From Parcubacteria group bacterium (GTDB lineage: Bacteria; Patescibacteriota; Minisyncoccia; UBA6257; Colwellbacteraceae), in assembly GCA_041649615.1 (NCBI GenBank), contig JBAZMT010000001.1, positions 90,981 to 154,980 of the forward strand: 64,000 bases of DNA, written 5' to 3'. Positions 2,666 through 39,536 of this stretch are shown here, piece after piece (the stretch's first letter is position 1; every line of letters starts with the position of its first letter). Below the pieces are notes generated by a model. That model was given only the letters and a program-made list of their open reading frames with translations, searched no databases and was not told the origin of the DNA. The position numbers were made by a program, and so were the translations under genes.

Positions 2666-3655
2666 TCAGAACAGCCTGATTATATCCCTTATTGTAACAA
2701 TAAACATTAGGAGCAACAAAAGCGCGTAGCTTACGGAATTTACGACCGAAATGATTTTTTTATTGAGGGGCTTCTTTCTGATTTTTTCAACCAAAAGGAA
2801 TAAAAGACGCCCTCCGTCAAGAGCCGGCAAAGGGAAAATATTCACGATCATAAGGTTCAACGAGACTACTCCGAGGAGCTGAAGGAAGTAAGGAAGTCCC
2901 ATGTCTTTCGCGACTTGCACGGCGGAGAAAATTCCCACGGGACCGGTACTGCCGGTGAAGTCGCCGTGCCTGAACATGGAAATGAAAGCGTTCACGATTC
3001 TTAAAGAAAACGCTCCGGCGCTTTTTGCTCCGGAAACTAAACTCTTGAAAAAGTTTTCTCTGGGAAATCCGCTTTCAACAAGTTCCACTCCTATGCGTCC
3101 GCCGTTTTCGCCTTCGGTCGGAATGACTCTAACCTCCGAAATTTTTCCCTCGCGTTCCACTTTTAGCGCGAGTTCGCTTCCCGTACTTTTTCCTATGAGG
3201 TCAACGAGGGGGGTAATGGAATCAAAATCATTCAGTTTGTCCCCCGATTTGAGTCCGGCTTCCGCAGCGGGAGAATTTTCCAAAACCGCGCTTATATAAA
3301 CGCCTTTCGGCGTGCCAACCATGAAAATGACCGAAAAAGCGAACCAGGCGAGCACGAAATTCATGACCACTCCCGATGAGTAAACAACCGTTTTTTTCCA
3401 CGCGGGTACATCCATATATTTCTCCGAGGAAATTTCAATGGCGTCCACTTTGACGAATCCACCGAAAGGGATGGCGTTTAAGGAATATTCCGTTCCGCGC
3501 CATTTTTTGCCGATAAGTTTCGGAGGCAGACCGAAGCCGAATTCCTGAACTTCAAGCTTTAATAATTTTGCGGCCGTAAAATGCCCCACTTCGTGACCGA
3601 GAATCAGAATGGCGAAAAAAACAATTATGAGAAGTGCGGTTAAAATGAATTCCAT
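2666..3655 (-). CDS. rseP: site-2 protease RseP-like (M50 zinc metalloprotease with PDZ domain)
   Basis: 329 aa; HEVGHF (HExxH) in first TM, PDZ-like middle, LDGG motif near C-terminus. Confidence 0.75.
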   Translation of the reverse strand: MEFILTALLIIVFFAILILGHEVGHFTAAKLLKLEVQEFGFGLPPKLIGKKWRGTEYSLNAIPFGGFVKVDAIEISSEKYMDVPAWKKTVVYSSGVVMNFVLAWFAFSVIFMVGTPKGVYISAVLENSPAAEAGLKSGDKLNDFDSITPLVDLIGKSTGSELALKVEREGKISEVRVIPTEGENGGRIGVELVESGFPRENFFKSLVSGAKSAGAFSLRIVNAFISMFRHGDFTGSTGPVGIFSAVQVAKDMGLPYFLQLLGVVSLNLMIVNIFPLPALDGGRLLFLLVEKIRKKPLNKKIISVVNSVSYALLLLLMFIVTIRDIIRLF

Positions 3656-3659
3656 CAGT

Positions 3660-4190
3660 TTAGGCTTCCAGCTCGGCGGTTTTTTCTTCCAAAAGTTTGT
3701 CTATGCGTTCGTTAAAATCGTCAACGAGTTTCTGAAGATTTTCTTTCCCTTTGAATTTTTGGTCTTCGGGAAGAGAATTCAATTCCTTTACGGATTTGTC
3801 GCGCGCGGCGCGCATTTTAATCCTGTTGTCTTCGGCAATGGATTTGATGAGTTTTACGAGCTCGGCTTTTCTTTCGCCCGTCAGTTCGGGCAACGTGAAC
3901 CGAATAACCGCGCCGTCATTTGAAACACCGAGTCCCAATCCTTCTTCTTCCACCGCTTTTACGATATTCTGAATCACGCTTTTGTCCCAAGGAGAAACGA
4001 TTATATCTCTCGGGGGCTGGATTCCCAAAGTAGCCACGTGATTTATCTGACTCTCGCATCCCATGTAAGACACCTTAATTTGCTCAATTAAGCGAGTGGT
4101 CGGACGGTTTCCGCGAATGCGGGAAAATTCGTCCTTTACCTGGGCGATAATTTCATCCATTTTTTGCGAAACTTCTTTTAACGGGTCCAT
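3660..4190 (-). CDS. frr: ribosome recycling factor
   Basis: 176 aa; typical RRF length and conserved R-rich helices (RIRGNRPTT, VKLIKSIAEDNRI...RAARD). Confidence 0.9.
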   Translation of the reverse strand: MDPLKEVSQKMDEIIAQVKDEFSRIRGNRPTTRLIEQIKVSYMGCESQINHVATLGIQPPRDIIVSPWDKSVIQNIVKAVEEEGLGLGVSNDGAVIRFTLPELTGERKAELVKLIKSIAEDNRIKMRAARDKSVKELNSLPEDQKFKGKENLQKLVDDFNERIDKLLEEKTAELEA

Positions 4191-4942
4191 GGTATTGCTG
4201 ATAATTGCAGTCTTTTATTCGTATTAAACCTAAGCGTGGAGACCATTCTCTTAAGTATTTTCTTGAGCAAAGCCGCGTTCTTCTCCATGTTATCATTATA
4301 CAATCCGGCGAGGCGCATCTTCATAAAGGTTTCAAATTCTTCCGAAGAAGCAAATTTCTGGGGGACGTCTTTTTTTGATTTGGATTTTTTTTCGCTTGCC
4401 AGTTCAAGAGCGAATCCCGGCCGACCGAAGGATCGCTGAACAATTTGTGCCGCTTTAACGGAAGAAATTCCTTCAGAAACAAGCAAAGATACGATTTCTT
4501 CGTTTTTAACCTGCGGGAAATACAATTTCCTTAAACGGGAAGCGAGAGTCGGAAGAAGATTTTCCGAGCCGGAAGCGATGAAGATGATGAGCGCGTGAGT
4601 CGGGGGCTCCTCCACAATCTTCAAGGCGGCGTTTTGCGCTTCGGGAGTCATTTTGTCCGCCGATTCCACGATGACCGATCGAAATTCGGACATAACCGGT
4701 CTTTCGCGGAGGAATCTCCTCATCTCTCTTATTTTGTCAATGCCAATCTTCGTTTCGCCCGCGGTAATAATGAGTCTTTCTTGAGGCACCGAAGGATTGC
4801 CTTCCAACTCACGCGTAAGGATGTCCGCGAAAGAAAATTTGCCTACCTGGGGCTCTCCGAAAAAAAGAAAGCTTCCCGTGAGAAGATTTTTATTCTTCAG
4901 GCGATCAATTATTTCTTTTTCCCGTTCTCTTCCGATAAGCAT
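4178..4942 (-). CDS. holB: DNA polymerase III delta-prime-like clamp-loader subunit
   Basis: 254 aa; AAA+ lid pattern: FGEPQVGK Walker-A-like, ...NAALKIVEEPP..., TLASRLRKL (SRC-like). Confidence 0.6.
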   Translation of the reverse strand: MLIGREREKEIIDRLKNKNLLTGSFLFFGEPQVGKFSFADILTRELEGNPSVPQERLIITAGETKIGIDKIREMRRFLRERPVMSEFRSVIVESADKMTPEAQNAALKIVEEPPTHALIIFIASGSENLLPTLASRLRKLYFPQVKNEEIVSLLVSEGISSVKAAQIVQRSFGRPGFALELASEKKSKSKKDVPQKFASSEEFETFMKMRLAGLYNDNMEKNAALLKKILKRMVSTLRFNTNKRLQLSAIPWTR

Positions 4943-5952
4943 CAGTTATTCTTATTAAGAAGAGTTTTTTTGTAAGTATCAAGATGGTTTAAAATAGTGC
5001 CCGATCCTTTGGCCACGCAGAGAAGAGAATCTTCCGCAATGTAGGACTCTACGCCCAGGATTCTCTTAAAGAACTCATCAATGTTTCTTAAGTTCGCGCT
5101 TCCACCCGAGACGATAATTCCTTTTTCCATAATGTCCGCCACAAGCTCCGGAGGGGTTTCGTTAAACACTTTTTGAATGGAAGCGGCAACGTCAAGAAGA
5201 AGAGGGTTCAGGGCTTCGGCGATTTCATTTGAAGTTATCACGATGTCTTTCGGAAGGCCGCTTACGATATCCCGTCCGCGTATTTCAAATTCCAGTTTAT
5301 TTTTCAAAGGCAAAGCCGAGCCGGCGGCGATTTTAGCCGCTTCGGCCGTTTGCTCGCCGATCGCCAAAGAATTTTTCTTTTTAACGAATTCCATTATGGC
5401 CGTATCAAATTTGTTTCCGGCCACCCGCAGGGAAGACGAACAAACGATACTTCCCAAAGATATTACGGCGACCTCGCTCGTTCCTCCGCCGATATTTACG
5501 ATCATATTACCGGAAGAAGAATTAATGGGGATGCCCGCCCCAAGGGCGGCTAAAAGAGGTTCTCTCACAACGTAGGCGTTTTTTGCGCCCGCTTCGGTAG
5601 CAGCGTTCAAGACCGCTCTTTTTTCGGTGGGTGTTATGCCGGCGGGAACGGAAATAACCACGTCCGGCCGCCAAAAATTAAAGCCGCCGGAGGCTTTTTT
5701 AATGAAATACGTGAGCATGGCTTTCGTGATGTAATAATCAGCGATAACGCCGTCTTTAAGCGGCCGGTAGGCGGAAATATCGCCCGGAGTGCGGCCGATC
5801 ATTTCCTTGGCTTCATGGCCAACGGCCAGTACCCTGTTTTCCGGAAGACTCAACGCCACTATTGTCGGTTCATTGATGACAAACCCCTTTGCTGGGGTGT
5901 AAACAACGGTATTCGTGGTTCCTAAATCAATCCCGATTTGCCTGACGAGCAT
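4942..5952 (-). CDS. second MreB-like actin homolog (paralog)
   Basis: 336 aa; IGIDLGTTNTVVY, NIGGGTSE; same family as 417..1460 but diverged. Confidence 0.8.
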   Translation of the reverse strand: MLVRQIGIDLGTTNTVVYTPAKGFVINEPTIVALSLPENRVLAVGHEAKEMIGRTPGDISAYRPLKDGVIADYYITKAMLTYFIKKASGGFNFWRPDVVISVPAGITPTEKRAVLNAATEAGAKNAYVVREPLLAALGAGIPINSSSGNMIVNIGGGTSEVAVISLGSIVCSSSLRVAGNKFDTAIMEFVKKKNSLAIGEQTAEAAKIAAGSALPLKNKLEFEIRGRDIVSGLPKDIVITSNEIAEALNPLLLDVAASIQKVFNETPPELVADIMEKGIIVSGGSANLRNIDEFFKRILGVESYIAEDSLLCVAKGSGTILNHLDTYKKTLLNKNN

Positions 5953-5983: not shown

Positions 5984-7171
5984 ATGTCTAATTATGCAAG
6001 AAAGGCCGTATTTTTGGCACTTATAGCTGTTTTTATTACCGCGGGAGTTCCTCTCGTCTTCTTTTCGTGCGGATACAGATTCAGCCTGAGTACCTTAAAA
6101 ATCACCAAAAGCGGCGGACTTTACGTGAGAAGCGTTCCGCCAGACGCAAAAATTTACGTGGACAGAAAACCCGTAACAAACAGCTCCAGCATATTGAGTT
6201 CCGGCACTTTGATAAACGGTCTTACTCCGGGGAAATACGAACTTAAAGTGACGAAAGATGGGTATTACGCGTTTTTAGCCGAGGCCGAGATAATCCCCTT
6301 GCAGGCAAGCTCCTTCGGAGGGCTTGTGCTCGCTCCCACCGTTTATAATTCGTATTTAACGGGAGACATTTCCGATTTTTACATTCAGGGAAGCGAAACG
6401 ATCGTTGAAGATTCGGCCGGAAAATTACGCTACAAAAATCAAGTAATTCCGGGAGAACAATTCGGATTTTTCACGGCTGACGGAAAATCGGTTGTCACTT
6501 CGGTTTCAGGGGACGGCGAACGGATATATCTTCTGATTTCGCTTTCAAATCCGAGAGCGTCCACGAACATCAATGAAGTTTTCTGGAGTTTGAAATCCAG
6601 CAAATTGGGCTTTATAGGAGAAGTTCCCGTTCAGGCAATAGCCCCGCATCCCTACGATCCCGATAAATTGCTTGTTAGCACCGCGGCCAGATTATATGCG
6701 GTGGATATAAAAAACATGGCGATAACGATAATGGGCAATGGTGCCGAGAAAATACTGCCGGGAAATCCTTCGGTTATTCTTTTGAGCAATAATTCGCTCA
6801 TAAATTACAATTTAACTCTCAAGACCAGAACGCCCATTATGGGGGTGGAGAATGCTCGAATTATTTCCGTTTCTCCGAACGGCAGAAAAATCGCAACGTT
6901 ATGGGAAAATAAAACGCTTGAGATATACGATGCCACGGACAAGAAATCATTAAGATTCAACCTCTCGGGATTGAATGACATAAAAGACATTTTCTGGCAT
7001 AAAGGGGGAAATTATTTATTTGTTCTCGCCGACAATAACGTTTATTTCGTTTATGCGGAGAAAGAAGGAATAAATCCGCAAATAATATACGAAGGCGCCG
7101 AAAAAGCCGTTTATTCGGATGGCGGACTTTATGTTCTCTCTCAGGGAGAAATTAAGACGTCAAAATTTTAG
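5984..7171 (+). CDS. membrane-anchored PEGA-domain protein with beta-propeller-like C-terminal region
   Basis: 395 aa; N-terminal TM helix; VRSVPPDAKIYVDRKPV...GKYELKVTKDGYYAF resembles PEGA domain. Confidence 0.45.
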   Translation: MSNYARKAVFLALIAVFITAGVPLVFFSCGYRFSLSTLKITKSGGLYVRSVPPDAKIYVDRKPVTNSSSILSSGTLINGLTPGKYELKVTKDGYYAFLAEAEIIPLQASSFGGLVLAPTVYNSYLTGDISDFYIQGSETIVEDSAGKLRYKNQVIPGEQFGFFTADGKSVVTSVSGDGERIYLLISLSNPRASTNINEVFWSLKSSKLGFIGEVPVQAIAPHPYDPDKLLVSTAARLYAVDIKNMAITIMGNGAEKILPGNPSVILLSNNSLINYNLTLKTRTPIMGVENARIISVSPNGRKIATLWENKTLEIYDATDKKSLRFNLSGLNDIKDIFWHKGGNYLFVLADNNVYFVYAEKEGINPQIIYEGAEKAVYSDGGLYVLSQGEIKTSKF

Positions 7172-7913
7172 GACCCGAGATTGACGCAAACACCGTGTGT
7201 TCAAAATGAGCAGCAGGTTTGCCGTCCACGGTTTTGAAGCTTCCGTCCGGAAGTTCAAAGACTTCTGAGGTTCCCAATGAAAACATCGGTTCAAGGGCAA
7301 GAACCATTCCTTCTTCAATCAGAGCGCCCGTTCCAACTCGCCCCACATTAAAAACCAGCGGGTCTTCATGAGGGGCAAATCCGACTCCGTGTCCGGCGAG
7401 ACCGTCAATGACGGAGACGCCGTATTTTTTGGCGACCGAAGAAATGGCAAAGCCGATGTCACCGAGTCTTTTACCGGGACGCACTTCTTCAATTCCCGCA
7501 TACAGCGCTTCTTCAGTCGCACGAAGGAGACGGGTAATTTCGGGCGAAGTTTTGCCTATAACAATCGTTCGCGCCGAATCGGTGAAACGATCTTTATAGT
7601 TCACTCCCATATCAATTTTTAAAACATCTCCTTCTTTCAACTCTCTTTTATCGGGAATTCCGTGCACGACAACGCTTCCCAAAGAAGCGCAAATGGAAGC
7701 GGGATAAGCGCGTTTCGCGCCCTCCGGACGATACCCTAAAAATGACGGCGTGGCGTCATAAGAAGAAATCAGATCAAACGCCAACCGGTCTAAGAAACTC
7801 AATTTGACGCCCGGAGCGGCGGCTTTGGAGACTTCCTCTAGAACGGTTTTTAGAATGCGTCCCGAAACTTCAAGGAGAGCTAGGTCTTTTTCGGATTTAA
7901 TTATCGGCTTCAA
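7152..7913 (-). CDS. map: methionine aminopeptidase type I
   Basis: 253 aa; pita-bread fold metal ligands (D..D..H..E..E pattern: HGIPDKRELKEGDVLKIDMG...). Confidence 0.85.
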   Translation of the reverse strand: MKPIIKSEKDLALLEVSGRILKTVLEEVSKAAAPGVKLSFLDRLAFDLISSYDATPSFLGYRPEGAKRAYPASICASLGSVVVHGIPDKRELKEGDVLKIDMGVNYKDRFTDSARTIVIGKTSPEITRLLRATEEALYAGIEEVRPGKRLGDIGFAISSVAKKYGVSVIDGLAGHGVGFAPHEDPLVFNVGRVGTGALIEEGMVLALEPMFSLGTSEVFELPDGSFKTVDGKPAAHFEHTVFASISGPKILTS

Positions 7914-8517
7914 AAAACTTTTTTACTTCTTTTTCCACGGCGCGTTCCACCGTTTTGACGGAAGGAGTTCCATCTATGCCGGCAACTTTAATTCCCCGTT
8001 TCTTTAACTCACGCACAACAGGAAGAGTTTCACGCTGGTACACGCGGCACCTTACTCTTATGACCGAAGGTTCGTCAAGGCCGGTCCGTCCGCGTTTGGA
8101 ATTTCTTTTGACGGATTCCGAAACGGGAATGCGAAGAAACACAACTAAAATATTTTTGAGTCCGTAGCGCCTTATAAGCGTATCGGCGACTCCTCCACCT
8201 TTGAGATTAAAAGCCTCTCTCATCGTCCGCGGGCTGCCGCTCATTACAAGGCCTTTTCCTTTGACATAAAACTTCTTAATTTGTTTTTTAACTTCCGCTC
8301 CTGCCCAATTTGAGTCGGCCAACTTGCCCGACATAAAGAGTTTTCTTTGCCTTCTTAGAATTGCGTTTTTTTTAAGAAGACTTGTGTCATTTACAAGTTT
8401 TTCAATGTGTTTACCCGTATCAAAATGAGTTAATCCGTATTTTTTGGCGATAATTCCCGCTTGCGTTCCTTTTCCCGCTCCGGGAGGACCATAAAAAAGA
8501 ATGACATGCTTCTGCAT
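7897..8517 (-). CDS. adk: adenylate kinase
   Basis: 206 aa; P-loop GPPGAGKGTQA, LID and NMP-binding regions. Confidence 0.9.
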   Translation of the reverse strand: MQKHVILFYGPPGAGKGTQAGIIAKKYGLTHFDTGKHIEKLVNDTSLLKKNAILRRQRKLFMSGKLADSNWAGAEVKKQIKKFYVKGKGLVMSGSPRTMREAFNLKGGGVADTLIRRYGLKNILVVFLRIPVSESVKRNSKRGRTGLDEPSVIRVRCRVYQRETLPVVRELKKRGIKVAGIDGTPSVKTVERAVEKEVKKFFEADN

Positions 8518-25744: not shown

Positions 25745-27115
25745 CTACTTTTGGTCAGTATTAAGCAAGTGATCTATGCGGTTTATGTCTCTCGGGAAAA
25801 GGGTCGCTTCTTTCACGTTGCCAAGTTCCAACAGTTTCTGCGTGAGACGTTCCAGCCCCATGCCAAAACCGCCGTGCGGAGGAAGACCGTATTTGAAAGC
25901 CTGAAGATAAAAAGAAAAGTTTTCCGGATTTAGTCCTTTTTCCTTCATGGAGGCGACAAGGGCATCGTAGTCGTGAATACGCTCGGCTCCCGTCGTTATT
26001 TCTATTCCGCGGAATAAAAGATCAAATCCCTTGGTGTAGGCCGGATCACTTTCATCGCGATAAGTGTAAAAAGGGCGTTTTTCCGTCGGAAAATGGGTAA
26101 TGAAAATAAAATCGGAATTAAATTTTTCTTTTGAGTAAGCGCAAAGCCAGCGTTCGTGTTCCGGCTCCAGGTCCGGTTCTTCGGTGCAATCGTTTCCGGT
26201 TTCATCACTAATGAGTTTTTGGGCTTCCCGCAAAGTCATTTTGGGAATTTCATCGGGAACGGCTGGAATTTCGGCATTTAATAATTTGAATTCGGCGACA
26301 CATTTTTCCTTGAGTTCGCCTTCAAGGTATTTCAAAAAGGCGTTTTCTATGGCCATCACGTCCGTATGGTCTTTTATGAATCCCATTTCAATGTCCAAGG
26401 AAGTGTATTCGTTCAAGTGACGGGAAGTGCTGTGTTTTTCCGCGCGATAAACGTTTCCCACCGTAAATACCCGCTCAAACACGCCAACCATTATCTGCTT
26501 GTAAAGTTGAGGGCTCTGCGCAAGATGAGCCGTATGACCGAAATATCCGACTTCAAACGTATTTGCTCCTCCTTCAGCGTCGTCGCCGATAAGTTTCGGT
26601 ACTTGGATTTCGGTGAAATTTTCGTTCCTAAAGAATTCCCTGAAAGCTTCCGCCACGACCGCTTGTACCTTAAATGTGGCCTGCGACTTTGTTCTTCTTA
26701 AAGTAAGAGGTAAATAATCAAGATAGGTATCAAGATTCAGCTCCGCGTCAGATTCAAAAGGAATTTCTTTGGCTTCGGAGAGCACTTCAAGTTCTTTTAT
26801 TTCAATTTCCAAGGCGCCGTTCGGTTCCGTCTCGTTTACCATCTTTTCCGGACGCGCGTTAACGAGTCCTTTAACCCTAATCACCCATTCCGGACGAAGG
26901 GCAGAAGCCAATTCGTGAACGGCTTTTTTTTCGGGGAGGGCCACCATTTGAACCTTACCCGTCCGGTCCCGAAGATCAATGAATATCAGTTTTCCGTGGT
27001 CTCTACGGGCGTTAACCGAACCTTCAAGAATCACTTCATGCCCGATAAGTTCGTTCAATTCCGAGGTTAAATTGCGCATTTTTTTCAGTATAAGCCGAGA
27101 AAGGGCTCTAATCAA
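25745..27115 (-). CDS. aspS: aspartyl-tRNA synthetase, archaeal/eukaryotic type (possibly non-discriminating; AsnRS not excluded)
   Basis: N-terminal OB fold, motif 2 RAEKHSTSRHLNEYTSLDIEMGF, C-terminal PHGGFGMGLERL...LFPRD. Confidence 0.65.
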   Translation of the reverse strand: MIRALSRLILKKMRNLTSELNELIGHEVILEGSVNARRDHGKLIFIDLRDRTGKVQMVALPEKKAVHELASALRPEWVIRVKGLVNARPEKMVNETEPNGALEIEIKELEVLSEAKEIPFESDAELNLDTYLDYLPLTLRRTKSQATFKVQAVVAEAFREFFRNENFTEIQVPKLIGDDAEGGANTFEVGYFGHTAHLAQSPQLYKQIMVGVFERVFTVGNVYRAEKHSTSRHLNEYTSLDIEMGFIKDHTDVMAIENAFLKYLEGELKEKCVAEFKLLNAEIPAVPDEIPKMTLREAQKLISDETGNDCTEEPDLEPEHERWLCAYSKEKFNSDFIFITHFPTEKRPFYTYRDESDPAYTKGFDLLFRGIEITTGAERIHDYDALVASMKEKGLNPENFSFYLQAFKYGLPPHGGFGMGLERLTQKLLELGNVKEATLFPRDINRIDHLLNTDQK

Positions 27116-28016
27116 TGGATTTAACGCGTAATTTACCTCGATTCTTCTCTATTTTTACGCCGCCGGTATCATCGGTTCTAAAGACGGGTATTCCCCTATC
27201 GGTAAATTTTTTAATGGTCTCTTCTTTGGGCAAACCATAACTGTTTTGACCCACGCTTATCACGGCGACAAGAGGATTGATGGCGGAGAGAAATCCGTCG
27301 GATGAAGAAGTGGCCGATCCGTGATGAGGAACTTTCAAAAAATCGGTTTCGGGAAAATTAATGGCGGAAATGACCGCTTCCGATTTGCGAGTTATATCGC
27401 CCGGGAACAAGCCATTCAGTTCGCCGATACTCGCAAAAATCACGAGGGATCCATCGTTATCTTTGAGTTTCTCTTCCGGCGTACCTTTCGGAGGATAAAC
27501 TATCTCCAGTTCAAGTAACTTGGTTTTTACCGAACTGCCGGCAAAGAAATTAATAACGGGGATATTTTTATCCCTGGCTTTGTTCAAAACGGCGTTGAAT
27601 TCTTTTTCCGTTTCCGAGCCGCTAGTAATAATGGCGCCGACGTCGTAATCCGATAAAACGTATTCCAGTCCGCCGAAATGGTCGGCATGAGGATGAGAAA
27701 TCACGATAAGATCAATGTAACGATCCGTTTTGGGAATAACGTGAGTGAGCTCGTACAAAACGTTTTTTCTGGGACCGGTATCAATTAACAAATCAATCCC
27801 TTCCGAACGGATAAGACTGCTGTCTCCTTGTCCCACGTCAAGAAAAGAAACGGAAATTTCGTTCTGATTTTTAACCGCTTCGCGAAAAACGAAAATATTA
27901 GAGATAACGAGCAAAAAAATTAATAATCCCGATTTCATAAGAAAGCAATGATTCCGCCAAAATTGAAAAGGGAAAAGCCAGATAATTGGATATAAAAGAA
28001 AGAATGCCGGAAACAA
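27108..28016 (-). CDS. comEC: ComEC C-terminal metallo-beta-lactamase domain protein
   Basis: LDVGQGDSSLI, HPHADHFGG; preceded by hydrophobic anchor. Confidence 0.7.
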   Translation of the reverse strand: MFPAFFLLYPIIWLFPFQFWRNHCFLMKSGLLIFLLVISNIFVFREAVKNQNEISVSFLDVGQGDSSLIRSEGIDLLIDTGPRKNVLYELTHVIPKTDRYIDLIVISHPHADHFGGLEYVLSDYDVGAIITSGSETEKEFNAVLNKARDKNIPVINFFAGSSVKTKLLELEIVYPPKGTPEEKLKDNDGSLVIFASIGELNGLFPGDITRKSEAVISAINFPETDFLKVPHHGSATSSSDGFLSAINPLVAVISVGQNSYGLPKEETIKKFTDRGIPVFRTDDTGGVKIEKNRGKLRVKSID

Positions 28017-29205
28017 AAGAGAAAAACATGGCTAACGGCACCGACCATATAATCATAGCGTTCGGAATAAACGATAACCAATTAAAGCGACCGAATAAAA
28101 TCGGTATTACCGGCGAAACGGCCAATTCGGCGGAAAAACATTCCGTGATAACCGATCCCATGAAACCGATTTCCCTTTCTCTGAAAAATAACTTTTTGAG
28201 ACGCGGAGCGATGAAAACAATGCCGAAAAAAGCGGCAAAAGAAAGAATAAATCCGGCGTCTTCCATAATGATAAAAGGATCGGAGACGACCATTAAAAGA
28301 GCGGCCAGAGCCATCGGCCCTTTGACGCTCACGAGTCTCCCCATATTTTTGGTAAGCATGGCGATCAATCCCATAATGGCGGCACGAACGACGGAGGCCG
28401 AAGGACCGACCAGTAAAACAAAAATGATTATGCCGAGAGTGGCGGCGAAAGGACGCCACTTAACGGGCAATAAGAAAAATATAATCGCAAAGAAAGAAGC
28501 CACTATTGTAATATTAAAACCCGACAAAGCAACGATATGCGTGGTACCCGTAGCACTTAGATCATCCTTGAACTCCGGTGTAAATCCCGATTTGTCGCCA
28601 AAGATGATTCCATCCGCGAGGGCTGAAGAATTAGGAGATAAAATTCTTTTAAAATTTTCCGACATACGCTTGCGGATGGAAAAAAGAGAGCACATAAATC
28701 CTTTGCATTCGTCACCGATTATTTCCGTGTTTTTACAAAAAACGCTGGGTTTCCCTGAAGCCAGTAGGTCCTTTTTGCAATCCAGCGCCAATATATTCCC
28801 GTATTTTAAGTCCTCATAACTTTCCGCCGTAAGGTTCAGTTTTTTACCGTCCGCCAATTTAAGATTAAACTTCACTAATCCGCCGTAATCCGAAGGATAA
28901 GAAATAATTTTTCCTTCTATGTGAAAATTTCCGCTGTCTGGCGGAATAAAACTCGAAGAAAACGATTTATAAAGGAAAGGATAAAGGCAGCCAAGGGCGC
29001 AGGCAAAAAGAAAGAGAGCAACAATCCGGCTGGCTCTCATGAATATCGCAAAAAAAAGAGATAAGATAAGCAGTCCGGCAAAAACGGCGCCCGGATGATC
29101 TATGACGGATGCGATTATCGTACCCGTGCAGAAGCAAATTGCCGACCAAACGAAAACATTCCCCTTCGCCATTTTAAAAAAAATAGCGCTAGAGCATTTG
29201 GGCAA
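27898..29205 (-). CDS. comEC: ComEC/Rec2 membrane (competence) domain protein
   Basis: 435 aa polytopic membrane protein with ComEC competence-domain pattern; overlaps downstream MBL ORF by 119 nt in a different frame. Confidence 0.7.
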   Translation of the reverse strand: MPKCSSAIFFKMAKGNVFVWSAICFCTGTIIASVIDHPGAVFAGLLILSLFFAIFMRASRIVALFLFACALGCLYPFLYKSFSSSFIPPDSGNFHIEGKIISYPSDYGGLVKFNLKLADGKKLNLTAESYEDLKYGNILALDCKKDLLASGKPSVFCKNTEIIGDECKGFMCSLFSIRKRMSENFKRILSPNSSALADGIIFGDKSGFTPEFKDDLSATGTTHIVALSGFNITIVASFFAIIFFLLPVKWRPFAATLGIIIFVLLVGPSASVVRAAIMGLIAMLTKNMGRLVSVKGPMALAALLMVVSDPFIIMEDAGFILSFAAFFGIVFIAPRLKKLFFREREIGFMGSVITECFSAELAVSPVIPILFGRFNWLSFIPNAMIIWSVPLAMFFSFVSGILSFISNYLAFPFSILAESLLSYEIGIINFFARYL

Positions 29206-31390: not shown

Positions 31391-32854
31391 CTATTCGTCG
31401 TTTATTTCGTTCTTTTCCGCCTTGATATCGGATGAAGATTCGTCCGAATGCATTGCTTTGTCAAGAGCGGCGCGAAGATCGTCCATTACCACCTCTCTTT
31501 TCGGTTTTACGGGCCGAAGGATTTTTTCAAGCGGGAGTTCGGTTCTACGCGCGATTCTTTCCTCGGTCTTTTCATTATTGTCTTCCCAACGTTCCATTAT
31601 CTTTTTTTCTATCTGCGCTCTCGGCATACCGTATTTATTCCGACTGGTCTCAATTATCATATCTTTCACCGAATTCTCCCCTTCTCTGTGAGAAAGGAAA
31701 TCAAGATTACGCGCCGAGAAGGGTCTTGAGGCGATGCCGTCTATCATAAGTTTGATGTAAAAATGATGTTTACCCGTGTTTACAAGATCAGTTGCCATAA
31801 ATTCGGGAGAGAATTCTTTTTCCAAAAATTCAGCGTCTTCGGCGCCGACCCTGAAGGCGATGAGCGTACCGACGTTTCCGAAGATGGCTGGACGCACCGT
31901 TTCCGAGAGCTGTTCAATGTATTGATGGGCAAGAATGAGACTTAACCTGTATTTGCGAGCTTCGGAGAGAATGACCGCAAAAGAATCGGTGGAAAAATTT
32001 TGAAATTCGTCTATATAGAGGAAAAAATCCTTTCTTTCAAATTCGGAAGTGTCTATTCGGCTCATGGCCGCTTGCTGAAGTTTCGTGATCAGCATGGCTC
32101 CCAAAAGAGCGGAATTGTCTTCTCCGATTTTTCCGTGAGAAAGATTGGCAATCAAAATTTTTCCGTCATCCATCACGCTTCTCATATTCACGGACGATTT
32201 CGGCTGACCGATGATATTCCTGATTAAAGGATTCGCGATAAACTGACCTACTTTGTTTTGAATGGCGGCAACCGCTTCTGAAGCATATCTGTCCGTATAT
32301 TTGCCGAATTCGTTAAGCCAAAAGTTTTTGACCACCGGATCTTCCAAGATAGCGGTGATTTTTTCCCTGAAACGCTTATCCGTGAGCATTTTCATCACGT
32401 CTAAGAGCGTAGAGTTCGGAAATTCCAAAAGGGCGAGCAAAGTATTGTTCAAGATGTATTCCATTCTCGCCGACCAGGCGTCAACCCATATTTTTTTGAA
32501 AACGCCCATCATGCCGGAAGCGATGAGATGTCTGAAGCTTCCTTCTACGCCTTCAAGCGGATTGAAACCGATCGGGTGATCAATATCCGCCGGATTGAAA
32601 TAGATAACGTCGTCAATGCGTTCCGGAGGAACGAAATCAAGCATTTTTTCCGCAAATTGACCGTGCGGATCAATAAGACCGACTCCTTTGCCGTTTCGGA
32701 TGTCTTCGGCCACCATATTTTCCATCATGGTGGTTTTACCCATACCTGTTTTTCCGATCAGGTACATGTGCCTGCGGCGATCGTCCACCTTAATGCCAAA
32801 GCGTTCTTCCCGATTCCTGAAACTGGTTTTTCCAAAAAAATTAACTTCTTCCAT
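31391..32854 (-). CDS. FtsK/HerA/TraD(VirD4)-superfamily P-loop ATPase without TM segments
   Basis: Walker A IGKTGMGKTT followed ~20 aa later by LIDPHGQF (HerA/TrwB-like DPxG), C-terminal YIDEFQNF and SEARKYRLSLILAHQYIEQL...FRVG (TraG/TraD/HerA C-terminal pattern). Confidence 0.6.
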   Translation of the reverse strand: MEEVNFFGKTSFRNREERFGIKVDDRRRHMYLIGKTGMGKTTMMENMVAEDIRNGKGVGLIDPHGQFAEKMLDFVPPERIDDVIYFNPADIDHPIGFNPLEGVEGSFRHLIASGMMGVFKKIWVDAWSARMEYILNNTLLALLEFPNSTLLDVMKMLTDKRFREKITAILEDPVVKNFWLNEFGKYTDRYASEAVAAIQNKVGQFIANPLIRNIIGQPKSSVNMRSVMDDGKILIANLSHGKIGEDNSALLGAMLITKLQQAAMSRIDTSEFERKDFFLYIDEFQNFSTDSFAVILSEARKYRLSLILAHQYIEQLSETVRPAIFGNVGTLIAFRVGAEDAEFLEKEFSPEFMATDLVNTGKHHFYIKLMIDGIASRPFSARNLDFLSHREGENSVKDMIIETSRNKYGMPRAQIEKKIMERWEDNNEKTEERIARRTELPLEKILRPVKPKREVVMDDLRAALDKAMHSDESSSDIKAEKNEINDE

Positions 32855-32865
32855 AGGGCTTTAAA

Positions 32866-34161
32866 TTATCCAATAGGCAAATTCGCCGGAGGGGCGCCTT
32901 TCTTTGATTCAAGCTGACCTAGACCCGGAGCCGCAACGCGTCCGATAGGCGGGTGGAAAATGGTCGCGAGTTCTTCCACGTTCATGAGCGAAGGTTCAAG
33001 CGCTTTCTTAAACATTGACTGCACGTTCGTCAAAAGAGAAAGACTTCTTTCAATGTAGCTTTTATATATTTCTTTTTTCTTTCTTAAGATTATTTCTTTT
33101 TTGCGAGGAACGAAAAATCGCGGAGGAATGGTCATAGTGAGAGCGGCCGGACGCATGCCGTTTAGGTTCTGCGTATTGAACTGCTGGAAAGCGCTCATTG
33201 CAGCCTTGAAATTGCTGCCGCTGAAACTATCTTTCTTGTCTATGTAAATTATCCTCGTAATAGTTTCAAAAGCCAGTTTGGACGCTTTAGCGTCTACCGC
33301 TCTGATTATTTCGGCGTCTTGAGCGGAAACGCTTTTGGGTTTTTCTTCGGGTTTGTCACTCCACTCGGGAAGTTTTACGGGCGCCAAAACGGCCTCTCTA
33401 GTAAATTCCAAAAGTCCGCCAACTACGCCTTTCTTTTCTTCTTTCTTTCCGGACTTTTCAGCGATGACTTTTTTAGCCGCTTCTTTCAATTTGTCGCCGG
33501 CCGGACGAACAAGAGTTTGTATCCACATCCGCTCGTCCGATTTCAGACTGGACATTACTTCGGCTAAAATGGCAATCGGATCAACTTCCTGTTCTTCATA
33601 TTTTCTTTCGCCGAAGAAGTAAGGATAGGTTTTCATGGGATAAGCGCTGTCTTTGCCCAAGATCATATCGGCTCCCATAATGTCATACTCCTCATTCGGA
33701 AGATCGGGCGGAAATTCTTTTATGTAATCTTTATCCGCTTCAAATATTTCCGCTCCCGGATATTCGGCGAATATGGCCGATTCCACGAGGGCGCGATTCT
33801 TTTTGTTCGTTCTCAAGAAAAACCTGATGCCTTCTCTTGAAGAAATCATTTCGGCGGAAATCGTTTCTTCAAACTGGCCTTCAAGCCATTTTTTTTCCGG
33901 CTTGATACCGAAACTGTATATCTGATAAAAGCTCGCGAATATTTGTTCCATGGCCTTCGGGAAAGTCTCGTTGTCTTTCGGGAATTTGATCTCCAAAAGG
34001 ATGTATTCTATGCCCGAGGCAAATTTATCCTGCGATTCGTCAAGCCACCAATTTTTGAGAAAAATTATGATAAATCTCAAAACCAAAAAGATGGCGATAA
34101 GCGTCAGCGCTCCCAAGACAATGTCGCCAAAGTACTCCTCTAATCCGGAGAGGAACTCCAT
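32866..34161 (-). CDS. N-terminally membrane-anchored protein of unknown function (431 aa)
   Basis: single predicted TM (IVLGALTLIAIFLVLRFIIIFL) then large soluble domain; no recognisable motifs. Confidence 0.3.
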   Translation of the reverse strand: MEFLSGLEEYFGDIVLGALTLIAIFLVLRFIIIFLKNWWLDESQDKFASGIEYILLEIKFPKDNETFPKAMEQIFASFYQIYSFGIKPEKKWLEGQFEETISAEMISSREGIRFFLRTNKKNRALVESAIFAEYPGAEIFEADKDYIKEFPPDLPNEEYDIMGADMILGKDSAYPMKTYPYFFGERKYEEQEVDPIAILAEVMSSLKSDERMWIQTLVRPAGDKLKEAAKKVIAEKSGKKEEKKGVVGGLLEFTREAVLAPVKLPEWSDKPEEKPKSVSAQDAEIIRAVDAKASKLAFETITRIIYIDKKDSFSGSNFKAAMSAFQQFNTQNLNGMRPAALTMTIPPRFFVPRKKEIILRKKKEIYKSYIERSLSLLTNVQSMFKKALEPSLMNVEELATIFHPPIGRVAAPGLGQLESKKGAPPANLPIG

Positions 34162-34166
34162 AGGTT

Positions 34167-35030
34167 TTATTTTAGCTTAAGTCCGTAAGTTCCGCGACCC
34201 ATAAGGATGAATCGGGGATCTTTAATAAGCTCGTTGTGAACCGTGGGCGCGTGACTCTTTATCATTCTCGCGATTTCCGTGAAGTGCATCGGTTTTCCTT
34301 CTCTCTTCAAGAGAACGAAAGCTTTGGCGCGGACGGTTTTCGGATTTATTTCTTCCCATTCGGAAAGACCGATGTCGCCGTAGGGACCGACTCCCAGACG
34401 CTTGGAAACCTCTAGAAATCCGAGAATAACGCTTTCTTGGACGTTTTTAGGAATGGATATGGAACGGAGCAATTCATCAAATTGTTCGACAGCCGTGAGA
34501 TTTCGCGTGATTTCTTCGTGAATCGTCTCCATTTTCTTCTTCGCTTCGTCGTTTACATACCAATAGCTGTGAAAAACGTTGTTCTCTTCGGAAAAGTAAG
34601 GAAATTCCGTGACCCGAAATACGAATCGCGCTTTATTGCCGAAAACATCTCTTTCTTCCGCGGATTTCGCAATGGAATGAAGTTCTTCCATAAACATATC
34701 GTCTTTTCTGAGTCCTCCGGTGGCAAAAAGATGACGTTCGGCGAATTCCTTGAGCGCCGCTACTTCCTCAAAATTACCAATGCTCTTTTTGAGCTCATTT
34801 ACGGCCTGAGATTCTAACTGGCGAACGCGTTCTCGCGTGATGCCGTATTTGGCGCCAAGAGCCTGGAGGGTAAAAGTCTTTTTGGATTCAAGGCCAAAAC
34901 GCTTGTTTAAGATATTTGAACTTCGCGCGTCCAAATCGGCGTCTTCAAGCAGCTTTTTGATGAAGTTTTGCATATCCAAACCAGAAAGATTCATGGTTCT
35001 GATAGTACAACTTTTTAAATTTGATGTCAA
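34167..35030 (-). CDS. sigma-70 region 4-like HTH protein with uncharacterised C-terminal domain
   Basis: LTLQALGAKYGITRERVRQLESQAVNELKK resembles sigma-70 r4 helix-turn-helix. Confidence 0.4.
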   Translation of the reverse strand: MTSNLKSCTIRTMNLSGLDMQNFIKKLLEDADLDARSSNILNKRFGLESKKTFTLQALGAKYGITRERVRQLESQAVNELKKSIGNFEEVAALKEFAERHLFATGGLRKDDMFMEELHSIAKSAEERDVFGNKARFVFRVTEFPYFSEENNVFHSYWYVNDEAKKKMETIHEEITRNLTAVEQFDELLRSISIPKNVQESVILGFLEVSKRLGVGPYGDIGLSEWEEINPKTVRAKAFVLLKREGKPMHFTEIARMIKSHAPTVHNELIKDPRFILMGRGTYGLKLK

Positions 35031-37350: not shown

Positions 37351-37425
37351 TGGTCCGCCCAGGAGGACTCGAACCTCCAACTTTCTGCTTAAAAGGCAGC
37401 TACTCTACCATTGAGTTATGGGCGG
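37351..37425 (-). tRNA. tRNA-Lys (anticodon UUU), CCA encoded
   Basis: acceptor CCGCCCA/UGGGCGG, anticodon loop CUUUUAA, T-arm GGAGG-UUCGAGU-CCUCC, 3' ACCA. Confidence 0.85.
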
Positions 37426-38519: not shown

Positions 38520-39536
38520 TTATCTCAGTAAAACCACTTCTTTGCTTTTCGGTTCAAAATAAACCTCCGCAAATTTTATCGCAAGGATCAGCTGATAAAT
38601 TAGAAACGATAGTAACGCGACAAGCCATCCCAAGAGCCAGAACGCTCCGCGAACGGCGGTAAAAATAATTATCGTTGCAATGAGAGCCAGATAATTTGAG
38701 GGAATCGTTTCAATGACGTCCTGGAACTTGTCAGTGGCCGCGTTTCTAAAATTTTCCTCAAAGGAAGCGTCAAGATCAATGTTTAATCCGATGTCGTCTC
38801 GAAGCATTGTTTCATAATCCGCAATTTTTTGATCAATTAGTCTCTCTTTCTGGCCTTCCGGCATCAGGGCAAATTCCACGGCGTCCGGTCTTGCAAGGGA
38901 TTGCCTCGCCGAGATCGTCAGAAAATCGCGAAAACTCATATTTAGAGTAAATCCCGGAGCGTAATAACCAATCACGGGCGAGGAAACGGAAATCATCCCT
39001 CTCACAAATCGTTCCGAGAATAAATCTTCCGCTTTAAAATTCCATCCATAGCTTACGGCTATCGCGAGAGCAATAATGGTAAAGGCTCTCGCAAGCACTT
39101 TGCCGGAAAATTTGGTGAAACTTACTCGCAATGAATTATCCAGTTCTCTTTTTCCGCGCCATATTCCTTCCGTAAGAATAATGACGGAGACAGCCGCAAG
39201 AATAATTATGGGGATAAACGGAATTCTGCCGAAAATGAACAAAGGGAGCGCTAAAAGTACGGAAGAAAACAACGAAACCAAAAAAAGAAACTTTCTGGCT
39301 TTAACAAGAACGGGGACGAGAGTGATAAACGAAGCAAAAACGATTCCTGTCACGATAGCGGAGAAGAAAGACCAGGCAAACAAAGCGTAACCGAACAAAA
39401 AAGCGAAAGCCGCGGTAACGGCGATAACCGCGAAAACTTTAATAGGAGAATAATCCGTTTCGGATATTTCTTCGTTACGCCTGGCCGCCTTCTTTGTTTT
39501 CTCCGTTTTCTCCTGAGTCGGAATTGTTTCCGCCAT
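38520..39536 (-). CDS. polytopic membrane protein of unknown function inserted between dnaK and dnaJ
   Basis: 338 aa, ~6 predicted TM helices, no known motifs. Confidence 0.3.
   Translation of the reverse strand: MAETIPTQEKTEKTKKAARRNEEISETDYSPIKVFAVIAVTAAFAFLFGYALFAWSFFSAIVTGIVFASFITLVPVLVKARKFLFLVSLFSSVLLALPLFIFGRIPFIPIIILAAVSVIILTEGIWRGKRELDNSLRVSFTKFSGKVLARAFTIIALAIAVSYGWNFKAEDLFSERFVRGMISVSSPVIGYYAPGFTLNMSFRDFLTISARQSLARPDAVEFALMPEGQKERLIDQKIADYETMLRDDIGLNIDLDASFEENFRNAATDKFQDVIETIPSNYLALIATIIIFTAVRGAFWLLGWLVALLSFLIYQLILAIKFAEVYFEPKSKEVVLLR

Follow-up and report, generated by a model that had tools for sequence, protein, structure and literature searches.

Three adjacent genes on the minus strand of contig JBAZMT010000001.1 from a Parcubacteria group bacterium are the subject of this analysis. 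They lie in a stretch of 64,000 nucleotides that was analysed as a whole and is called the window here, and they encode, in the order of transcription, a helix-turn-helix (HTH) protein, a membrane protein and a soluble ATPase (Table 1). A preliminary description of this DNA had listed the three open reading frames (ORFs) with their coordinates, the gaps of 5 and 11 nt between them and an efp gene abutting the ATPase gene, and all of these are present in the sequence; efp begins 2 nt beyond the ATPase stop codon. It had also taken the tight packing as notable, but the gaps between co-directional genes have a median of 12 nt across the window and 49% of them are 11 nt or shorter. Because short gaps are window-wide, the spacing of the trio is unremarkable, and its real signal is the conserved order in other genomes. 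The surroundings consist of housekeeping genes (mreB, a ribosomal protein operon, secY, EF-Tu/EF-G, aspS, comEC, mnmA, efp, secDF, dnaJ/dnaK and the mraW/ftsI region), and the 64 kb agree with the earlier statement that no other genes of a type IV secretion system (T4SS) lie close to the trio. Promoter and terminator scans did not rise above shuffled expectation and are therefore uninformative on operon structure.

Table 1. Features of the three genes and of their products (positions in the window; residues are those of the respective protein; TM, transmembrane; T4CP, type IV coupling protein; AF2, AlphaFold2).
Feature	Position	Strand	Basis or remark
HTH gene (maximal ORF 287 aa)	34167-35030	minus	ORF read from sequence
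Sigma-70 region 4 HTH, residues 32-82 of the maximal ORF	34785-34937	minus	Pfam PF04545, 1.1e-10
C-terminal HARE-HTH/winged-helix domain, residues 225-287	34170-34358	minus	Pfam PF05066, conservation profile
Membrane gene, probable anchor half (431 aa; precomputed Pfam PF26449)	32866-34161	minus	TM helix, VirB4-like domain and linker
Single TM helix, about residues 14-36	34054-34122	minus	Hydropathy, AF2 model
Alpha/beta domain, residues 53-401	32959-34005	minus	Fold matches VirB4/TrwK
Conserved C-terminal tail EELATIFHPP...KKGAPPANLPIG	32869-32958	minus	Inter-domain linker in fused homologues
T4CP-like ATPase gene (487 aa, soluble), probable C-terminal half of a split protein	31391-32854	minus	Pfam, fold
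Walker A GKTGMGKT, residues 34-41	32732-32755	minus	Sequence; homologue alignment
All-alpha insertion between Walker A and B, about residues 105-230	32165-32542	minus	AF2 model; same place as the all-alpha domain of T4CPs
Walker B strand and family-specific motif DFFLYIDEFQNF, residues 276-287	31994-32029	minus	Homologue alignment
Charged C-terminal tail, partly of low confidence, about residues 385-487	31394-31702	minus	AF2 model

The ATPase is a homologue of the VirD4/TrwB-type coupling proteins (type IV coupling proteins, T4CPs) without a transmembrane domain (TMD), as follows from its Pfam, profile and fold matches together with the lack of a transmembrane (TM) segment. In Pfam it matched TrwB_AAD_bind (PF10412; 6e-12, 45.5 bits with a cutoff of 20.5) over residues 23-336 and TraG-D_C (PF12696) with 26.3 bits (cutoff 22), and a match to DUF87 was confined to residues 22-88, over the Walker A region. 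A profile built from 24 homologues had TrwB (1.7e-5) and DotL (3.8e-5) as its closest solved relatives in the PDB. The AlphaFold2 (AF2) model has a RecA-like core (predicted local distance difference test score, pLDDT, 77; predicted template modelling score, pTM, 0.78), and the nearest structures in Foldseek were those of DotL (2e-10), TrwB (2e-8; TM-score 0.5-0.6) and Cag-beta, with HerA (7e-8) and the C-terminal domain of VirB4 (5e-6) further down. Thus the Pfam and fold matches bear out the placement in the TraD/VirD4/HerA branch that had been proposed from the motifs alone. Hydropathy also agrees with the earlier finding that the ATPase has no TM segment (Kyte-Doolittle maximum 1.14), and at its N-terminus the model shows merely a short beta-hairpin.

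The motifs quoted before were all found: the full Walker A motif GKTGMGKTT at residues 34-42, DPHG at 62-65, DEFQNF at 282-287, ARKYRLSLILAHQ at 299-311 and FRVG at 334-337. G34, G37, G39, K40 and T41 of Walker A are invariant across the 24 homologues, and so are D282, E283, F284, Q285, N286 and F287. Between the two motifs, helices spanning residues 105-229 lie between strands 83-86 and 233-237 of the model. The charged C-terminal tail is modelled with a pLDDT of 89-93 over residues 401-420 and of 38-72 over about residues 431-487; by its likeness to the tails of TraD and DotL it may bind a substrate or an adaptor. All NCBIfam matches of the ATPase (TraD, CD1115, CedD) were sub-threshold and far under every T4CP equivalog cutoff, the best being SXT_TraD with 38.7 bits against a cutoff of 366; conju_CD1115 aligned with residues 24-342 at 35.4 bits against a cutoff of 250. 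Models of VirB4 were missed as well (P-loop_TraG, E 0.053; TIGR00929, 17 bits where the cutoff is 643), and the Pfam family CagE_TrbE_VirB matched neither the ATPase nor the membrane protein.

For the membrane protein, too, hydropathy agrees with what had been described, namely one N-terminal TM segment (Kyte-Doolittle peak 2.82 at residue 14, 19-residue window). It and the ATPase are 100% identical to NCBI proteins of a metagenome-assembled genome, encoded on a contig of 203 kb. PF26449 (PF26449.1) is present in the precomputed annotation of the identical protein and of nearly all homologues, which number in the hundreds. Scans with NCBIfam, PADLOC and a local copy of Pfam that does not contain the PF26449 model gave no match, and searches of PDB chains with the single sequence and with the profile gave nothing relevant. 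A profile search recovered 3,522 cluster representatives at 50% identity, and a scan of viral contigs yielded a single weak match of 39 residues. In the AF2 model (pLDDT 82.5, pTM 0.78) a long helix (residues 2-50) is followed by the alpha/beta domain of residues 53-401 and a disordered tail, in which EELAT.H.P and KKG.PP.NLPI stand out as conserved motifs in the homologue alignment.

The preliminary description had called this soluble domain one of unknown fold and had proposed a structural comparison. The top 14 Foldseek matches in the PDB were all TrwK/VirB4 chains from cryo-electron microscopy structures of the R388 T4SS (E 5e-5 to 1.3e-3, probability 1.0), at a low TM-score of 0.33-0.36; the next matches were unrelated oxidases with E >= 9e-3. 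Structures of the VirB4 C-terminal domain alone, of TrwB and of HerA were not among the matches. Since only full-length TrwK was matched and the domain-only structures were not, the likeness would appear to be to the VirB4 N-terminal domain. The domain must be cytoplasmic and the topology N-out/C-in, because relatives fuse it to the cytoplasmic ATPase.

Two sets of loci were compared. One comprises 80 genome loci (L001-L080) from many Patescibacteria lineages, among them Wolfe-, Lipton-, Azam-, Moran-, Magasanik-, Komeili-, Terry-, Nealson-, Portnoy-, Yanofsky- and Niyogibacteria; the other comprises 80 arbitrary loci obtained by scanning metagenomes for the family-specific motif DEFQNFxTxSF. 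In the genome set, 78 of the 80 loci have the ATPase gene immediately after the membrane gene. Among the metagenome loci, 33 carry a fused ORF of 713-1048 aa, in which the ATPase profile begins within few residues after the membrane profile, and 11 show the split-adjacent form. A search with one fused protein returned more than 120 clusters of 909-991 aa. The fused proteins of Saccharibacteria/Saccharimonas have both PF26449 and PF10412 in their precomputed annotation, with identities of 79-90% among more than 120 clusters. When the junction was aligned with six fused proteins, the pair from the window proved collinear with them, and the break falls in a short linker after a PPxxLP motif. Both halves also match phrog_5156 (824 positions), at positions that do not overlap.

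We are therefore highly confident, from fusion and collinearity, that the membrane gene and the ATPase gene each specify one half of the same membrane-anchored, T4CP-like ATPase, the anchor of which has a fold matching VirB4. One large lineage has the protein split, whereas most lineages have it fused. The minimal module of three genes that had been suggested is thus not supported, as two of its genes make one protein.

The two halves are not linked everywhere. In the metagenome set, 17 ATPase ORFs with room upstream had no match to the membrane gene, and some of these are tandem paralogues. A re-check with relaxed hidden Markov model thresholds found no cryptic membrane homologue upstream of the partnerless ATPase genes, and therefore some ATPase copies are truly unlinked. 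At L075 the membrane-half gene stands alone (4287-5648), between dnaJ and rsmI/metG and with no ATPase or HTH gene nearby, whereas lone ATPase genes directly follow alaS at L091 or dnaK at L147; as these three loci carry one half alone, the halves can be genomically unlinked. Several loci of the candidate phyla radiation (CPR) have two paralogous copies of the T4CP-like ATPase (L036, L147, L151 and L122), in tandem at 3576-5327 and 5563-6999 of L036, 4191-5714 and 5721-7910 of L147, and 6119-7993 and 8027-9358 of L151; the second paralogue has no membrane-partner gene of its own. Some record titles are off-lineage: L060, L075 and L079 are titled Acutalibacteraceae or Gammaproteobacteria, yet are typical CPR loci, and many records of 'uncultured Candidatus Saccharibacteria' show the split, Paceibacteria-type arrangement. 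Mis-binning of metagenome-assembled genomes or generic labelling is the likely cause.

No neighbour common to all loci of the family was found. At L101, the fused gene is the last in a co-directional cluster of monoderm-type T4SS genes, preceded by VirB2-like pilins, a pilin+TrbL/VirB6-like gene, PrgI, a TrsD-like ORF, VirB4 and a CHAP hydrolase, and T4SS clusters resembling this one are present at L090, L133 and L100. A small T4SS-like cluster of Bacillus phage G (L203, record positions 87772-93336) contains gp153 (TrbL-like), gp154, gp155 (VirB4-like) and gp156. The last of these, annotated as MsbA-like, is a fused homologue according to hhalign (97.4% for residues 46-320, 99.9% for residues 378-751) and is about 26% identical to a fused CPR protein. 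With the fused gene behind VirB4 both in CPR T4SS clusters and in phage G, the family repeatedly occupies the slot of a T4CP. This speaks against the earlier notion of a standalone module, as in some lineages and in the phage the family sits inside a VirB4/VirB6 cluster.

Some further observations were made in these clusters. The VirB6/TrbL-like protein of L101 (10424-11683, minus strand) has an N-terminal T4SS_pilin domain and thus is a pilin-VirB6 fusion. Related phage proteins are those of PBC5 (PBC5_050, L204) and vB_BceS-M2, with the annotation lipid A export protein, and ORF201 of 0305phi8-36; in SPO1-like phages the relationship is limited to the ATPase part.

The family has been counted before: it belongs to the 5,713 VirD4-like T4CP homologues that Quinonero-Coronel et al. 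2025 reported from 2,918 Patescibacteria genomes (PMC12102498), most of them orphans. It therefore does have a described counterpart, contrary to what had been assumed from the sequence. In the literature searched, nothing was found on PF26449 or on the split/fused architecture; the partner domain, the split/fused nature, the phage homologue and the high conservation are undescribed there, while the family itself is visible in databases.

Comparison with known systems places the protein near the T4CPs without making it a typical one. With VirD4, TrwB and TraD it shares the nucleotide-binding domain, the all-alpha insertion and the TraG-D_C region. T4CPs in general, however, carry an N-terminal TMD, of two or more helices, as part of the polypeptide itself, whereas the ATPase here has none and the anchor is separate, with one helix. 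The family further differs from T4CPs in being chromosomal, single-copy, extremely conserved, usually far from a T4SS and not accompanied by a relaxase. A subfamily of T4CPs that have no TMD and rely on a separately encoded membrane protein is established (PMC7434980); TraJ with TraI of pIP501, TrsK of pGO1 and the CD1115 family have the same TM-free ATPase with a membrane gene just upstream, and TrsK aligns with our ATPase over the full length but weakly. Their partner is a small protein with several TM segments, whereas here it has 431 aa, one TM helix and a large VirB4-like domain. VirB4 proteins (TrwK, TrsE; frequently fused as VirB3-VirB4) may be alike in overall plan, with an anchoring helix, then an alpha/beta domain at the N-terminus and a RecA-like ATPase. 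Yet our ATPase is nearer to the T4CPs in sequence and fold, hhalign gave no signal between the profile of the membrane protein and TrsD or TrsE of pGO1 or the TrsD-like ORF or VirB4 of L101, and genuine VirB4 genes coexist with the family in L101 and in phage G. Gp156 and phrog_5156 represent both halves after a VirB4-like gene and differ as a divergent single polypeptide. The orphan Patescibacteria T4CPs, including SEML1_0293 of Ca. Southlakia epibionticum, have the same NCBI name and the same Pfam set, are chromosomal and mostly do not lie near virB4. In SEML1_0293 the ATPase domains begin at about residue 400 and a gene with Sigma70_r4 and HARE-HTH lies upstream; in the window the protein is in two genes.

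The HTH protein was first described as a sigma-70 region 4 HTH fused to an uncharacterised C-terminal domain. The region 4 assignment holds, and its conserved core in the homologue alignment is TL..G...GITRERVRQ.E. The C-terminal domain, in contrast, can be recognised as a HARE-HTH/winged-helix domain: it is the most conserved part of the protein, and PF05066 matches residues 232-259 (1.7e-5) with 25.6 bits against a cutoff of 25.9. Sigma-70 factors have region 2 and region 4, whereas this protein has region 4 only; Pfam matches Sigma70_r4 and nothing of region 2, and NCBIfam sigma models match residues 12-90 or so, far under their cutoffs. Hydropathy gave no TM segment. Homologue alignments begin at residues 13-18 of the maximal ORF, and the best sigma-70-like promoter match (TTGACA-17-TACTAT, 10/12, at 35002-35030 on the minus strand) starts on the called TTG start codon. 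For these two reasons the gene probably starts with the ATG at 34994 (275 aa) rather than with the TTG at 35030, in which case the transcript would have almost no leader.

Absence of conserved co-occurrence would have refuted the preliminary description, but the trio does co-occur across CPR genomes: the order HTH-membrane-ATPase was found in 67 of the 69 genome loci with room on both sides (Paceibacteria/ABY1-type). Directly upstream of the HTH gene, secD-secF is present in 48 loci of L001-L080 and absent despite room in 24, so that the conserved block is in effect secD, secF, HTH, membrane half, ATPase. Since secD-secF is nearly as syntenic, conserved order is weak functional evidence here. 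With the fused gene the association is looser; the HTH gene lies upstream of it in 5 of 23 loci with room, and all five are in a Saccharibacteria-like subgroup. In S. epibionticum, SEML1_0294 lies directly upstream of SEML1_0293 and encodes 349 aa with Sigma70_r4 and HARE-HTH (PF05066 at 225-283; three winged helices by ECOD), and it was essential by transposon sequencing (Tn-seq) at all three passages (Wang et al. 2023). Because of this independent essentiality and of the low linkage to the fused gene, the HTH protein is probably an essential factor in its own right, which binds DNA or associates with RNA polymerase, and not a subunit of the motor; the HTH gene shares its neighbourhood, and probably its transcript, with the motor genes. 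No protein combining HARE-HTH with sigma region 4 was found in the literature searched.

What could the split protein do? We slightly favour an interpretation in which it is a variant T4CP motor, here split in two, that couples substrates to a T4SS, next to a separately acting HTH factor. On this view, the product of the membrane and ATPase genes would be a single P-loop motor of the hexameric type and the VirD4/TrwB kind, anchored in the membrane. The first half would contribute the single TM helix and the cytoplasmic VirB4-like domain, with the conserved tail corresponding to the linker that leads to the motor in fused relatives, and the second half would contribute the ATPase with its intact Walker A, the Walker B motif DEFQNF, the all-alpha domain and the charged tail. 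The pair would assemble at the membrane, recruit substrate and energise the monoderm-type T4SS that most Patescibacteria presumably encode elsewhere in the genome. In this lineage the variant T4CP would have been split and moved away from the secretion genes, and the HTH gene product would act on its own, as a neighbour. We are moderately confident that the Patescibacteria T4SS has in this pair its coupling or energising ATPase.

Several observations weigh against this interpretation. No VirB4, VirB6 or relaxase gene is present within the 64 kb window. Among the 5,713 Patescibacteria T4CP homologues, 148 are near virB4, and VirB4 itself was detected in 2,417 of 3,035 assemblies, fewer than the 2,918 with T4CP homologues (PMC12102498). 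The ATPase is conserved to a degree that is atypical for coupling proteins: its median identity to the window protein across the genome loci is 61%, above SecD (48%), SecF (43%), EF-P (48.5%), MnmA (51%) and DnaJ (47%) at the same loci, whereas the membrane half and the HTH protein have medians of about 35% each. Finally, name, length, Pfam coordinates and synteny point to SEML1_0293 as the orthologue of the family in S. epibionticum. This protein of 921 aa, with PF10412 at 402-719, is flagged as a member of a core, Patescibacteria-enriched family in tables S1/S2 of Wang et al. 2023 and is not discussed in the main text of that study. In Tn-seq it was non-essential at all three passages (normalised reads 5817, 2940 and 1372), while the T4SS genes of S. 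epibionticum are essential and so is SEML1_0142, its second T4CP-like gene.

This dispensability, the spread beyond that of VirB4, the distance from virB4 and the extreme conservation would all fit a role outside type IV secretion. The pair could be a membrane-anchored core translocase that acts on nucleic acid, for example by pulling in DNA via ComEC, as ComFA does in Firmicutes, or by handling nucleic acid derived from the host. We regard this as possible, though unlikely. Quinonero-Coronel et al. raise exaptation of the T4CP homologues and do not exclude it (PMC12102498), and in S. epibionticum comEC is dispensable for viability and dprA is non-essential. Weak hints come from gene positions, as comEC lies four genes downstream in the window and within 6 kb in 14 of the 80 genome loci, and dprA lies four genes upstream of the HTH gene in S. 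epibionticum. On the other hand, one TM helix per subunit is ill suited to an autonomous membrane channel, and the linkages of the family are to VirB4/VirB6 clusters and not to competence genes. The suggested tie to transformation derives from gene proximity, and this proximity, at three to four genes, falls in a long conserved housekeeping synteny. A more far-reaching version, in which PF26449 and the T4CP-like protein form an ancient separate branch of the VirB4/VirD4 superfamily, in which a VirD4-like motor retains an N-terminal domain like that of VirB4, and serve in Paceibacteria as a T4SS-independent core machine, possibly the motor of ComEC, with the HTH protein as regulator or loader, seems doubtful to us.

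A self-contained translocation module of all three genes, with the HTH protein as an adaptor that loads substrate on the ATPase like TraM on TraD, is more doubtful still. It would account for the gene order that is kept in the Paceibacteria/ABY1-type loci and recurs in the Saccharibacteria type, for the two DNA-binding modules of the HTH protein, and for the resemblance of the charged ATPase tail to the adaptor-binding tails of TraD and DotL. However, secD-secF keeps its place nearly as well, the HTH gene is missing beside 18 of the 23 fused genes with room upstream, and the orthologue of the HTH gene is essential while that of the ATPase is not. Polarity cannot explain the essentiality of SEML1_0294, because the downstream SEML1_0293 is dispensable. 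We consider it very improbable that the protein is an FtsK-like DNA pump for chromosome segregation or cell division, although it is a membrane-anchored ATPase of the FtsK-HerA superfamily in a housekeeping context. FtsK/SpoIIIE proteins have a PF01580 motor, a multi-TM N-terminus and a gamma domain, and the ATPase matched no FtsK/SpoIIIE family of Pfam, neither the motor PF01580 nor the gamma domain; FtsK was not among its significant Foldseek matches (E <= 0.001), and an essential FtsK of its own (SEML1_0096) exists in S. epibionticum, where our family's orthologue is dispensable. Least probable of all is the anti-phage defence module that had also been considered, be it MADS mad8-like or HerA-based. 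Its support is limited to domain-level matches: mad8 was the best PADLOC match of the ATPase (1.3e-20, residues 7-368), HerA and DndH matched weakly, and the HTH protein matched MzaA in region 4 only. MADS is an eight-gene operon (mad1-mad8), but the neighbours here include no methyltransferase, nuclease, Sir2 or NurA partner and are efp, secF and secD instead. Likewise HerA, as known from HerA-NurA and Sir2-HerA, shares the P-loop superfamily, the DUF87 match and the fold, without the nuclease or Sir2 partner being present. The membrane protein had no PADLOC match, and defence islands behave in the opposite way to this core gene, which is single-copy, highly conserved and fixed in housekeeping synteny. 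With the defining partners missing and the context housekeeping, the defence, FtsK and HerA-NurA readings were rejected.

Three features of the surroundings may be recorded as well. A tRNA-Lys gene (anticodon UUU; 37351-37425, minus strand) lies between dnaJ and secD, within the co-directional gene run of the trio. A multi-pass membrane protein of 338 aa (38520-39536, minus strand) is encoded between dnaK/grpE and dnaJ, with about 60 nt of its gene overlapping the dnaK end. The comEC gene (27108-29205, minus strand) is present as two ORFs with an overlap of about 119 nt, one of 435 aa with the membrane/competence part (27898-29205) and one of 302 aa with an HxHxDH metallo-beta-lactamase motif (27108-28016). 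The gene may be naturally split, or a frameshift or an error in the assembly may lie behind the two ORFs.

A large part of bacterial diversity consists of Patescibacteria, whose life attached to host cells requires their T4SS; the family may bear on how this system chooses its substrates and is energised. As a core gene of these ultrasmall bacteria, that of the ATPase shows very high conservation. Thousands of orphan coupling-protein genes can now be seen as a distinct class, with one TM helix, a VirB4-like domain and a VirD4-like motor, that exceeds SecD and EF-P in conservation and also has a member in a giant Bacillus phage. The class may also bear on the divergence of VirB4 and VirD4, and in the genetically tractable Saccharibacteria it offers a handle for experiments. 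The gene with sigma region 4 and HARE-HTH is an essential, CPR-enriched factor that is worth study by itself. Should the protein be the motor of ComEC after all, it would be the missing cytoplasmic motor for the uptake of nucleic acids on which these nucleotide-auxotrophic epibionts depend.

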